Of a DNA stretch of 4,285 bases, positions 631-3,935 are shown one piece after another. The stretch's first letter is position 1. Every line of letters starts with the position of its first letter. A program made the position numbers and the translations under genes. Below the pieces are notes generated by a model. That model ran no database searches, was not told where the DNA came from, and saw nothing but the letters and a program-made list of their open reading frames with translations. Origin of the DNA: a virus (lineage: Duplodnaviria; Heunggongvirae; Uroviricota; Caudoviricetes); the IMG/VR virus record IMGVR_UViG_3300018471_000107, positions 1 to 4,285 of that record; one strand, written 5' to 3'.

Positions 631-1383
631 TTATCTCGTCACCTTCCTCAATTGCGCTTCCGCGTATGCTTCTTCCTGCCAGCACTTTGTTACCAGTTTA
701 CCAATGACGTCCGCATACCCCTTATACCACTGATAATCGGTCAGGTCTGGTACCAGCTTCTGGACATGACGTCGTGCCAGCGTGGTCGGTAAACGACTAA
801 ATCGGTTTCCATTACAACGCCCACAAATCTTATATACCGGTACGCCATGAAACCGGGTTCTTTTTTCATCCAGAACAATCCCTTTACCCTTACACCCTCT
901 GCACGCTGTGCTGGCTTCGCCCTTACCATGGCAATGCTGACATAGTTCCTTCACCCATTCTTCCTTGATTACAGATTCCCCGCGTCTGTAGTGTTTCACC
1001 ACTTCGCGCAATACATTATAAAATCCCGTACCTGAACAATGCTCACAGCGAGCCTTACTTGCCGCAGACCTGGAGTAATCAGCAAAGGCAAAACTCACGA
1101 GGTAAGGAATAATCTGTAACCGGATTTCTTCACTCAATTTGTTCAATGTCGGGTTATCCAGTGCCATCGCGTAATTTAGCAGGCCTTCAATCGCAAACTG
1201 AGGGTCCTGAACACCAACTTTTGCCAGAAATAAGGCCAACCCAAGTGGTGCTTTCGACTGCACCATCCCCTGCGCTGCCATTACATCCGTAATTGTTAAA
1301 CAACCGGTGCCTGTCGCTGGAGCGTCATCGCTCAATTTTGGAGATTTTGGGGAGTAATATTTTGGTAAGGCTTCAAGGTTCAT
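631..1383 (-). CDS. quuQ: Antitermination protein Q, QuuQ/Phage_antitermQ type, 250 aa
   Basis: ORF 631..1413 translation matches the Q antiterminator family as I recall it. I place the start at the internal ATG 1383 (MNLEALPKYY...) because GGAGAA lies 5 nt upstream of it, whereas the track start at 1413 would overlap the upstream gene by 17 nt. This gives 250 aa and a 13-bp gap to the upstream gene, the same length and spacing I recall for quuQ and ydfU in E. coli K-12 Qin. Four CxxCxG motifs are present. Stop TAA 631-633. Confidence 0.85.
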   Translation of the reverse strand: MNLEALPKYYSPKSPKLSDDAPATGTGCLTITDVMAAQGMVQSKAPLGLALFLAKVGVQDPQFAIEGLLNYAMALDNPTLNKLSEEIRLQIIPYLVSFAFADYSRSAASKARCEHCSGTGFYNVLREVVKHYRRGESVIKEEWVKELCQHCHGKGEASTACRGCKGKGIVLDEKRTRFHGVPVYKICGRCNGNRFSRLPTTLARRHVQKLVPDLTDYQWYKGYADVIGKLVTKCWQEEAYAEAQLRKVTR

Positions 1384-1396
1384 GCTCGTTCTCCAC

Positions 1397-2392
1397 TTAC
1401 GCCAGTACGCCAATTGCCAGCGCGCGATCGATAAAACGAAATATCAGCTCCAGTTGGGAGCCATACTTCTCTTCAAATGCCACGGTATCCGCATGCAGCT
1501 CGTCGTGATGCTTTCTGCACAAAGGCAACACAAAAAGGTCATGCGCTTTTGTTCCCATTCCACCCTGACCGTGACCTATCAGGTGGTGGGGATCATCAGC
1601 AGGCTTTCCACAACATGCACACGGCTGTGTCTTAACCCAGCGCGTGTACTTTTCATTAACCCAGCGGCGACGTTTGGGGCGTAACATAAAAGACTCCGGC
1701 GACTCCGGCTCCACTTTCAGCGCCAGCACCTTTTTCGCCTTATCCTGGATGATGCTGGTGGCAGGAACCGAAGGAACAAGGTCACTTTCCCGGGTGACAG
1801 ACGGCACAACAGGCTTCGGTAATCTCAGTGCCTTACGGGCTGCACTTTCCGGTAAGGCATCCGCCAGGTCATTACGAACCAGCCACCAGCATAGTTCCGG
1901 CATTGTCACAACGTGACTATCATCAAAACCGAGATCCCGACGCACAACAGACAACACCCAGCGGGCACAGTTATCCGTTGCCATTGATTCCAGCCGTTCC
2001 GTAAACTGATCGCGCAGCTGGTTATCGCAGTGCCAGCACAGACGGATTGCACCCGGAGCGTGTCGCATTGTGGTCATGTTCTCGCTGTGCCAGTCGGAAT
2101 GAGGCCACTGGCAGCCTTTTTCACGAAGTAACCAGCTTTCAAGACATTCCACGCCACCAGCACGACGGATCACTGCCTCATCGCGGAACACGGCCCGAAC
2201 GGCAGGATCATCCGCCAGCGGTTGTGATGCCGCCGGAACGGCACCACTGGCGAAAGATGAATAACGCTCCGGCTCAGGCTCCAGCAGGACACGCCCCTGC
2301 ATAAACAGGGGCATCAGCTCTGAACCTGGCCTGAACAATACGATCCCCATACGCGGGGCAATTTCAGGGGTCAGTAGTGCTCTCACGGTCAC
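1397..2392 (-). CDS. ydfU: DUF968 family protein (YdfU-like) with a C-terminal HNH-like Cys/His cluster; putative nuclease or zinc-binding protein
   Basis: 331-codon ORF ending TAA 1397-1399. The C-terminus reads PCACCGKPADDPHHLIGHGQGGMGTKAHDLFVLPLCRKHHDELH, the Cys/His signature I associate with DUF968/YdfU prophage proteins. It sits immediately upstream of Q, as ydfU does in Qin. The track start is GTG at 2392, 1 nt after the upstream stop; GTG at 2386 with GAGGTG just upstream is a likelier start, so the start is uncertain by a few codons. Confidence 0.8.
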   Translation of the reverse strand: MTVRALLTPEIAPRMGIVLFRPGSELMPLFMQGRVLLEPEPERYSSFASGAVPAASQPLADDPAVRAVFRDEAVIRRAGGVECLESWLLREKGCQWPHSDWHSENMTTMRHAPGAIRLCWHCDNQLRDQFTERLESMATDNCARWVLSVVRRDLGFDDSHVVTMPELCWWLVRNDLADALPESAARKALRLPKPVVPSVTRESDLVPSVPATSIIQDKAKKVLALKVEPESPESFMLRPKRRRWVNEKYTRWVKTQPCACCGKPADDPHHLIGHGQGGMGTKAHDLFVLPLCRKHHDELHADTVAFEEKYGSQLELIFRFIDRALAIGVLA

Positions 2393-2393
2393 C

Positions 2394-3203
2394 TCAATGA
2401 ACGGTATCGAGCAGCTTTAACAGCTCAGTGAATCGGGATTCGAAGAAATGCGGCTGCGTCTCGCGCGGATTTGCAGGACTGGTGATGTTCTTGCCGAACA
2501 TGCAGCCTTTCGCCGTCAGCGACCAGAATTTTTTGATGTTGTTAATCGCTGTACGGCTGTATCGTTCGCGCTGTTCGACGATCCCCAGCTTCGCCATCTG
2601 GTGATATGCCTGATTAGCCGTCAGGCGGATACCATACTGCTTCAGCAGTGCACTCAGTGACAGCGTGGGGCGGCTTGAGCCATCAGGCGCGTCAGCAGGA
2701 GCATCAATGGCATAACGCGGTGCCAGATTCGGTAAGCCAACAGCCTCCTGGAGTTTCTGACAGGCCCCAAGCACAGATGAGTTAGACAGATTTAACTCCC
2801 GGCGCATAAAGTCCAGCAGAATCACGCCAGCCTGCATCTTGTCAGCAGCCTGTCCGGATAACTTTTCCGGCGCGCTGGTTACCATATCGAAAGTACGGAT
2901 CACCTTCAGATGGAATGACGGGCTGATCCACATTGCATAGGCATACACCAGTTCCTTACAGACATACGTTCCCCGTTCATTTCCCCCATGAATCACACTA
3001 ACTGGGTCAACACCCAAATTCTGGGTGTTGATTAATTCATGAACAAGATCAACAGTTTGTTGGCTGGAAAGAAACTTTCCTGGCTCCTTGGTTCTGGCAT
3101 TTGCACCAGATGCTACTGCTGCGCGATGCAGATCGTTCAGGCTGTAACGCTCATAAGCATCACGACGAACTTCAATACCATCAATGACCATCAGATTATT
3201 CAT
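2394..3203 (-). CDS. KilA-N domain-containing protein (putative phage antirepressor or DNA-binding regulator), 269 aa
   Basis: The N-terminal ~100 aa (VIDGIEVRRDAYERYSLNDL...GTYVCKELVYAYAMWISPSFHLKVI) fit the KilA-N/APSES-like pattern, including the G-T-[WY]-V and W-[IL]-S-P-x-F signature. The C-terminal ~160 aa is unassigned. Start ATG 3203 is preceded by AGAGGGGAAA; stop TGA 2394-2396. Confidence 0.8.
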   Translation of the reverse strand: MNNLMVIDGIEVRRDAYERYSLNDLHRAAVASGANARTKEPGKFLSSQQTVDLVHELINTQNLGVDPVSVIHGGNERGTYVCKELVYAYAMWISPSFHLKVIRTFDMVTSAPEKLSGQAADKMQAGVILLDFMRRELNLSNSSVLGACQKLQEAVGLPNLAPRYAIDAPADAPDGSSRPTLSLSALLKQYGIRLTANQAYHQMAKLGIVEQRERYSRTAINNIKKFWSLTAKGCMFGKNITSPANPRETQPHFFESRFTELLKLLDTVH

Positions 3204-3222: not shown

Positions 3223-3321
3223 TCAGGCAGCTGCACCCGCCGTTTTCTCGTACTTACTGATAGTGATCTCGACCTTCCCTTCCGGGATAACCGGTCCCCA
3301 CTCCACCAGCATTCTTTTCAC
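3223..3321 (-). pseudogene. rusA: rusA 3' remnant: 32 in-frame codons after the internal amber codon, encoding the RusA C-terminus
   Basis: Reading through TAG at 3322-3324 in the same frame gives VKRMLVEWGPVIPEGKVEITISKYEKTAGAAA, then TGA at 3223-3225. This aligns with the RusA C-terminus as I recall it ([28 protein letters not shown]). The TGA lies 19 nt upstream of the KilA-N start and its RBS, the normal operon spacing. Confidence 0.6.
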
Positions 3322-3612
3322 CTAGCTGTCGTCTTCCCACACACCCGCGTGGGTCAGGGCGTCAAACAGCGCCTTGTTATAGTTGTCCAGATCGCGGATC
3401 CTGTTATCCGGAGGAAACAACACGATCTCCACTGAAGCAGGTGCCGACGTTGGTTTCGGCAGACGACGTAACTGCTCAACTATTGCTGCGCACGCCGCGC
3501 TCTGGAATTTTCGCCCCGCCGCGCTTATCAGGCTCTTACCAGCAAACGCCCCTTTGTTGGGGTGTCGCCAGTACGTGTTCACGCTGGGCGGAAAAGGCAG
3601 GATCAGCTTCAT
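3322..3612 (-). CDS. rusA: Crossover junction endodeoxyribonuclease RusA, truncated by a premature in-frame amber codon (96-aa product)
   Basis: Translation MKLILPFPPSVNTYWRH...DNRIRDLDNYNKALFDALTHAGVWEDDS matches RusA, including the catalytic acidic motifs RDLDN and WxDD. The ORF ends at TAG 3322-3324, at a position where E. coli RusA has Gln. Start ATG 3610-3612 overlaps the upstream stop in an ATGA arrangement. Confidence 0.8.
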   Translation of the reverse strand: MKLILPFPPSVNTYWRHPNKGAFAGKSLISAAGRKFQSAACAAIVEQLRRLPKPTSAPASVEIVLFPPDNRIRDLDNYNKALFDALTHAGVWEDDS

Positions 3613-3935
3613 ACTTTCAGGCCCCTCTCATGTAACCAGTGGGTTGCACGCAGCCTTGCGTTTTCCTCACCGGCAAGCAGTGAGCGGATAATCCCGACCG
3701 CCTCGCTGTCGTCGTCCTTCACCGCGGTATGAAGCGTGATGCCCCGGGCCACGCCACGCTTTATCGTGATGACGCCTTTTTTCTCCAGTGCGCGAAGATG
3801 CTCCACCGCTGCATTCACTGAACGGTATCCCAGCATGGTTGCCACCTCCTGATTGGTTGGCGGGAAGCCACGTTCTTTCTGATAAGAAATCAGCATATCC
3901 AGCACCTGCTGCTGGCATTGAGTTAACGTCGTCAT
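3609..3935 (-). CDS. LexA N-terminal DNA-binding domain protein lacking the S24 peptidase domain, 108 aa
   Basis: Translation MTTLTQCQQQVLDMLISYQKERGFPPTNQEVATMLGYRSVNAAVEHLRALEKKGVITIKRGVARGITL aligns closely with the LexA winged-helix domain ([66 protein letters not shown]). It is followed by a linker-like AVGIIRSLLAGEEN resembling LexA LVGRVAAGEP, then ends 20 aa later with no catalytic core. I chose ATG 3933-3935 (TAATG overlap with the upstream stop, G-rich RBS) over the track start at 3968. Stop TGA 3609-3611. Confidence 0.75.
   Translation of the reverse strand: MTTLTQCQQQVLDMLISYQKERGFPPTNQEVATMLGYRSVNAAVEHLRALEKKGVITIKRGVARGITLHTAVKDDDSEAVGIIRSLLAGEENARLRATHWLHERGLKV

Follow-up and report, generated by a model that had tools for sequence, protein, structure and literature searches.

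Does the amber codon that interrupts rusA in this stretch of prophage DNA represent a genuine loss of the gene, and by which mutational route did it arise? The window, i.e. the whole 4,285-nt stretch of DNA analyzed here, represents the early-right (nin-like) part of a lambdoid prophage. Its minus strand carries, in this order, genes encoding PerC, a LexA-like protein, RusA, KilA-N, DUF968/HNH and a YdfT-type Q antiterminator, and at the left end there is a cspF-like cold-shock gene, on the plus strand. The change itself is a single C-to-T transition that converted the CAG of Gln97 into TAG, with the rest of the gene intact. We consider it likely that the lambdoid-prophage rusA gene carries a genuine nonsense allele causing loss of function, which most likely originated from deamination of a 5-methylcytosine at a Dcm site.

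The whole of rusA, including the part stranded behind the stop, occupies positions 3612..3223 of the minus strand. The truncated frame (3322..3612, minus strand) begins with the ATG at 3612 and comprises 96 sense codons, the last of which encode the residues ...GVWEDDS; it is terminated at codon 97 by the TAG at 3324..3322. The ATG overlaps the TGA (ATGA) of the upstream gene encoding a LexA DNA-binding domain (3609..3935, minus strand), whose extent was deduced from the 108-aa annotation of its relatives. The stranded 3′ part of rusA (3223..3321, minus strand) consists of 32 intact in-frame codons, encoding VKRMLVEWGPVIPEGKVEITISKYEKTAGAAA, and the original TGA at 3225..3223. The KilA-N gene (2394..3203, minus strand) starts 19 nt past this TGA and 118 nt beyond the amber codon. 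Thus, the coordinates and the description of the stopped frame given in the first-pass annotation of this DNA are correct on the minus strand, as is the normal spacing to the next gene that it had claimed. A GTG lies immediately 3′ of the TAG, and an AGGTG-N6-ATG arrangement is present at rusA codon 101. By our own estimate, 32 consecutive open codons would occur with a chance of about 0.2, i.e. (61/64)^32; an open stretch of this length is therefore not unusual by chance, and it is homology that counts.

The closest intact copies, found in E. coli Res13-Lact-EA06-22 (L001) and many other strains, encode a 129-aa RusA. The rusA of the window differs from them at only three bases: nt 270 (position 3343; GGT instead of GGG) and nt 288 (3325; AGC instead of AGT), both silent, and nt 289 (3324; TAG instead of CAG). 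The two linked synonymous variants delimit a short patch (3325..3343, minus strand) directly upstream of the stop. The 32 residues encoded downstream of the TAG are identical to the C-terminus of the 129-aa protein of L001. The best full-length match of the window among complete E. coli genomes shows 96.3% identity.

When the gene is read through the TAG and aligned with the Pfam RusA profile (PF05866) and related prophage copies, as the first-pass annotation had proposed, the relatives carry CAG at codon 97. The read-through protein scores 56.4 bits and covers profile positions 1-123 of 124, while the 96-aa product scores 42.8 bits, covers positions 1-102 and lacks positions 103-124 (cutoff 22.8 in both cases). 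A phmmer comparison with the crystallised E. coli RusA (1Q8R) gave E = 4e-18. In an alignment of 20 homologues of 128-136 aa, originating from Escherichia, Salmonella, Citrobacter, Cronobacter, Klebsiella, Atlantibacter and Kosakonia, Gln97 is invariant, as are E104, W105, P107, G112, V114, E115, I116 and I118 downstream of it. Gln97 corresponds to Gln93 of 1Q8R, and residues D74, D76 and D95, all preceding the stop, align with D70, D72 and D91 of E. coli RusA (1Q8R, 2H8C), which form the cation site of that enzyme (PMC1636454). These alignments bear out the earlier view of an amber codon at a conserved Gln position, with the catalytic Asp residues before it and an intact C-terminal stretch of 32 codons behind it; the lack of further damage in this stretch also agrees with the proposal of a recent nonsense mutation rather than an old decayed gene. 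The idea of naturally short orthologues, whose existence had been named as evidence against that proposal, was rejected: no complete orthologue ending at position 96 was present among the best 120 hits, complete RusA homologues have about 128-130 aa, and several shorter entries are labelled partial or come from contigs of a few hundred bases.

The RusA of E. coli K-12 (DLP12 prophage; PDB 1Q8R, 2H8C, 2H8E) and that of phage 82 also belong to PF05866 and share with the protein of the window the catalytic Asp triad and the DD-x-Q-V motif. However, the K-12 protein, a distant match, is intact and has 120 aa, whereas the copy in the window stops at the equivalent of Q93. The K-12 rusA gene is transcriptionally silent until insertions activate its expression.

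RusA is a dimer, each monomer having a mixed sheet of four strands with a pair of helices at its flanks (PMC1636454). In an AlphaFold2 model of the 96% identical homologue P0002, obtained with moderate confidence (pLDDT 70, pTM 0.61), strands are formed by residues 2-6, 59-66, 98-105 and 113-120, and helices by residues 39-49 and 75-88. The copy in the window retains the RusA family profile and all three metal-binding/catalytic Asp residues, but its ORF ends at residue 96 and so falls short of the complete fold (a four-stranded sheet and two helices in about 120-130 aa). For this reason it is classified as a pseudogene of the RusA family and not as a functional member. Since two of the four modelled strands (98-105 and 113-120) lie in the lost segment, the 96-aa fragment is predicted to be inactive, in line with the earlier suggestion that loss of the C-terminal strands probably abolishes activity. 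Judged by the model, the product is almost certainly inactive or unfolded despite its preserved acidic triad: translation would halt after residue 96, and the resulting fragment would not be expected to adopt the fold of an active dimeric resolvase.

The loss of RusA should be nearly neutral. In lambdoid phages, resolvases of the RusA/Rap type are encoded in the nin region, which is dispensable, and RuvABC is available in the host. The newly untranslated stretch of 118 nt is rich in G (44 G, 18 C). Rho-dependent polarity on KilA-N, DUF968 and Q was also considered; inference from base composition makes a strong effect of this kind unlikely, because a G-rich stretch of 118 nt would be poor for Rho loading.

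The surroundings of the stop suggest how it was formed. It reads AGC-TAG-G and thus contains CTAGG (3321..3325, read from 3325 to 3321), while its one-step precursor, AGC-CAG-G, contains CCAGG, the recognition site of Dcm. The changed base is the inner C of CCAGG (C289T), in the context of a C-to-T transition giving CTWGG, and the CTAGG of the window would be the deamination product of the Dcm site of the precursor allele. Most E. coli strains carry dcm. In the proposed scheme the 5-methylcytosine at the inner C of CCAGG would deaminate to thymine, and the resulting mismatch would escape very-short-patch (VSP) repair, leaving the amber CTAGG. As the mutated base is the inner, methylated C of the site, this sequence context points to deamination of 5-methylcytosine as the most likely cause of the stop. 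The precursor allele AGC-CAG is common, being found at 810 places in 754 of 5426 complete E. coli genomes. Moreover, CTAG occurs in the window only once, at the amber site, versus 8.5 ± 2.9 occurrences expected from dinucleotide-preserving shuffles, while CCWGG is present at the expected frequency (8 versus 8.8). The single CTAG is consistent with a recent mutation in a genome in which this tetranucleotide is otherwise avoided, and the modest illustrative value of the locus lies here: a natural amber codon at the methylated cytosine of a Dcm site, creating the only CTAG in 4.3 kb.

Amber mutations of this class have a long history. Lieb's amber sites located in CTAGG within λ cI reportedly led to the discovery of VSP repair, said to have been reviewed by Lieb and Bhagwat in 1996 (a review cited in PMC2715241), and Coulondre, Miller, Farabaugh and Gilbert are said to have placed the lacI amber hotspots at Dcm sites in 1978. 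As in the lacI and λ cI ambers, the second C of CCAGG in the window has been replaced by T, CAG (Gln) has become TAG and CTAGG has resulted; judged by sequence context, the event appears to fit this known class. In contrast to those mutants, which were selected in the laboratory, the allele of the window is a natural prophage allele, and the role of Dcm is deduced from context and allele counts. PMC12606429, summarising the work of Coulondre et al. (1978), describes the lacI amber hotspots as C-to-T changes at the second C of CCAGG caused by 5-methylcytosine deamination. The T:G mismatch that such deamination produces in CTWGG/CCWGG is the substrate of VSP repair (PMC2715241).

Deamination on the opposite strand is predicted to yield a silent product, AGC-CAA (CCAAG), which was identified in 40 of the 5426 complete genomes; neither AGT-CAA nor AGT-TAG was found in any of them. 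Both predicted deamination products of the rusA Dcm site therefore segregate in the prophage gene pool of E. coli. The TAG codon occurs at 3 of 810 AGC places and at none of about 2170 AGT places, the latter denominator being approximate since it is the remainder of the places found and not a direct count (Fisher p = 0.02 for three events or 0.07 for two lineages, the events not being independent). Two of the complete-genome copies, L002 and L003, are identical, so the three TAG copies represent at most two prophage lineages and the contrast between the AGC and AGT backgrounds is weak and suggestive only. The CAA allele, at rusA nt 291, was observed exclusively on the AGC background (L146, L147 and 38 other complete genomes). 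The two CAA copies that were read are linked to 304T and reside on different 5′ halves of the gene; given the shared 304T, the 40 CAA genomes may reflect one event. A CAG version of the exact rusA haplotype of the window was looked for and not found, which also counts against the Dcm step.

A real nonsense mutation could also have arisen without any link to Dcm, by a replication error or a C-to-T transition at an unmethylated cytosine, with codon 97 coming to notice only since a single change turns CAG into a stop and the searches selected stops at this codon. We regard this as unlikely, although it deserves serious consideration. The statistical weakness of the AGC-AGT contrast speaks for it, as do a CGA-to-TGA change at codon 34 in two IMG/VR copies (L029 and L094) and a draft assembly (L005) in which TAG follows AGT (TTAGG) on a distinct local haplotype; in the last case codon 97 must have turned into an amber codon one or more times without a Dcm site, or else have recombined. 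Against it, the changed base is exactly the methylated C of CCAGG, which is the sole CCWGG of rusA in 19 of the 23 AGC-CAG copies examined, and in the 5426 genomes CTAGG and CCAAG both occur on the CC background and neither on TC. Deamination at the Dcm site accordingly remains the preferred origin.

Another explanation would be that the record is wrong, the true codon being CAG and the gene intact. We consider such a sequencing or assembly error very unlikely, and the first-pass annotation, which had named it as a possibility, finds little backing on this point. Occurrences of the allele elsewhere were searched for with a 41-mer centred on the TAG, for which megablast seeding requires a match at the central bases. 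The exact 41-mer is present in 3 of the 5426 complete E. coli genomes: RM10809-3 (NZ_CP023165; O22:H8, cattle, USA), JNE120442 (NZ_AP027254; human, Japan) and PEC122 (NZ_CM168021; swine, Korea), all with TAG at codon 97. An exact look-up of the 96-aa product revealed four further true stops (L005-L008) in independent SRA/ENA assemblies; three of these drafts carry AGC-TAG and the fourth is the AGT-TAG allele of L005. The linked variants GGT (nt 270) and AGC (nt 288) are common to the window and all six AGC-TAG copies found elsewhere. Random sequencing error is therefore improbable, as it would not create shared linked variants next to the same stop in independent assemblies. What could still be said for an error is that the database sequences contained no match to the full rusA haplotype of the window, and that draft assemblies often break at this same polymorphic spot, in a region made difficult by coexisting prophage copies.

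The same allele is thus present, though rare, among natural E. coli prophages, amounting to 3 of roughly 2986 copies in complete genomes (about 0.1%). The prophages of RM10809-3, JNE120442 and PEC122 resemble the window in the GGT...AGC-TAG configuration and in the LexA-like/RusA/KilA-N/DUF968/Q gene order. They differ from it in their Q genes and late regions, and the rusA gene of each has eight other silent or near-silent differences. PGAP annotates all three copies as RusA-family pseudogenes with an "internal stop". The rusA of the window is hence an ordinary prophage pseudogene, whose identical allele has already been flagged in RefSeq, and by itself it matters little, being one more case of prophage gene decay. 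It is mildly noteworthy only for its textbook mutational signature and for the low-frequency spread of one null allele over several prophage backgrounds.

The exact look-up of the 96-aa product also retrieved six draft contigs (L009-L014) that end at rusA nt 288-290, reading CAG or CA. These ends, at about position 5288-5290, coincide with the AGY/CAG polymorphic spot, and the breaks are probably due to assembly-graph branching between several prophage copies of rusA. As a consequence, gene callers record a 96-aa partial RusA that is identical to the truncated product, and such entries make the truncated protein seem more frequent in databases than it is. In practice, caution is needed, since many of the "96-aa RusA" proteins deposited there are artefacts of contig ends at this position and not true truncations.

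To trace the spread of the allele, about 125 rusA haplotypes were compared. Recombination is pervasive, with 98 distinct haplotypes among 117 rusA copies; the alleles at nt 211, 270, 288 and 384 are found in many different combinations. Nucleotides 212-383 are identical in all AGC-TAG alleles, and TAG is found on at least four rusA haplotypes and in several prophage architectures, including an Stx prophage. The comparison suggests that the rusA of the window is the common L001-type haplotype with a short imported tract that includes the TAG. Its stop might have been formed by mutation on its own lineage, perhaps after import of a tract with CAG, or might have been acquired in a short recombination or gene-conversion tract from a TAG-carrying prophage. 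Similarly, the AGC-TAG alleles may have a single origin, followed by spread through recombination between prophages, or may reflect repeated hits at a hotspot; only the TAG allele of L005 looks independent. In the Stx prophage (L006; Logan SRR10801094), genes encoding RIP (StxA) and SLT_beta (StxB) proteins are located at 8171-9397, after Q and about 3 kb downstream of rusA. The other nonsense allele, in which the CGA of Arg34 has become TGA, resides in L029 and L094 on rusA genes with different 3′ ends (...KTAGAAA and ...KASCKLAT, respectively); it is either recurrent or recombined, and its existence means that decay of prophage rusA is not restricted to codon 97.

That the amber codon has been kept because the loss of RusA benefits the prophage or its host, be it by making the resolvase less toxic, by letting prophages recombine or be induced less, or by polarity on the downstream genes for KilA-N, DUF968 and Q, appears highly improbable. 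The presence of TAG on so many rusA haplotypes and prophage architectures, the Stx prophage among them, and the recurrence of a nonsense allele at codon 34 would be consistent with selection. However, the frequency of the allele in complete genomes is tiny, and searches of IMG/VR, JGI metagenomes, GTDB species representatives and INPHARED phages, including 51 deposited phage records with this rusA, did not turn it up. In addition, the G-rich character of the 118-nt stretch would make it poor for Rho loading, and recombination between prophages accounts for the observed spread without selection.

Scarcely any weight can be given to the broader notion that the allele persists and moves between prophages, including Stx phages, owing either to conditional expression or to selection for the loss of RusA. 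Conditional expression could be achieved by Gln-inserting suppressors, by low-level read-through, or by termination and re-initiation, which would give a two-piece RusA. If the notion were true, the Dcm site would act as a reversible mutational switch, with deamination turning CCAGG into CTAGG and VSP repair restoring CCAGG; Vsr has been reported to stimulate CTAGG-to-CCAGG changes (PMC2715241). The suggestion that a Gln-inserting amber suppressor of the supE/glnV type would regenerate exactly the ancestral protein is valid in principle, since the ancestral residue is Gln. Conditional function, in which full-length RusA would be produced with such a suppressor tRNA, encoded by the host or by another phage residing in it, or through near-cognate read-through at a low level, is nevertheless barely conceivable: supE-type suppression would give the wild-type protein and the downstream codons are undamaged, but ARAGORN found no tRNA genes, and thus no nearby suppressor, in the 4.3-kb window, a UAG with G as its next base is not known to be especially leaky in E. 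coli, and the stop is not conserved among orthologues as would be expected of programmed read-through, all 20 homologues having Gln and the exact TAG allele occurring in only 3 of the 5426 genomes. A plain null allele that probably arose at a Dcm site is the reading that we retain.

Other signs of recombination and of rearranged reading frames were observed in and around rusA. Among otherwise near-identical rusA genes two alternative tails exist, ...EKTAGAAA* and ...EKASCKLAT... (the window compared with L017, L018, L035 and others). The variation lies at rusA nt about 370-390 (window 3223-3243), pointing to a mosaic boundary, produced by recombination, within the final codons. In P0054, a 129-aa RusA homologue from E. 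coli, residues ~50-67 are replaced by the unrelated sequence RVCQNQRRHLLQWRSCCFL, with both flanks in frame, which looks like a compensated double frameshift. Further downstream, the Q gene of the window (631-1413, minus strand) encodes a 250-aa protein of the YdfT type (PF03589) with a zinc-finger-like CXXCXGXG repeat, and the same type is present in L135. The same DUF968 gene precedes unrelated Q antiterminators in different prophages (the window versus L001, L002, L004 and L136-L145), those of the other prophages being PF06530 types of 114-144 aa, and a sharp module junction is located directly after DUF968.
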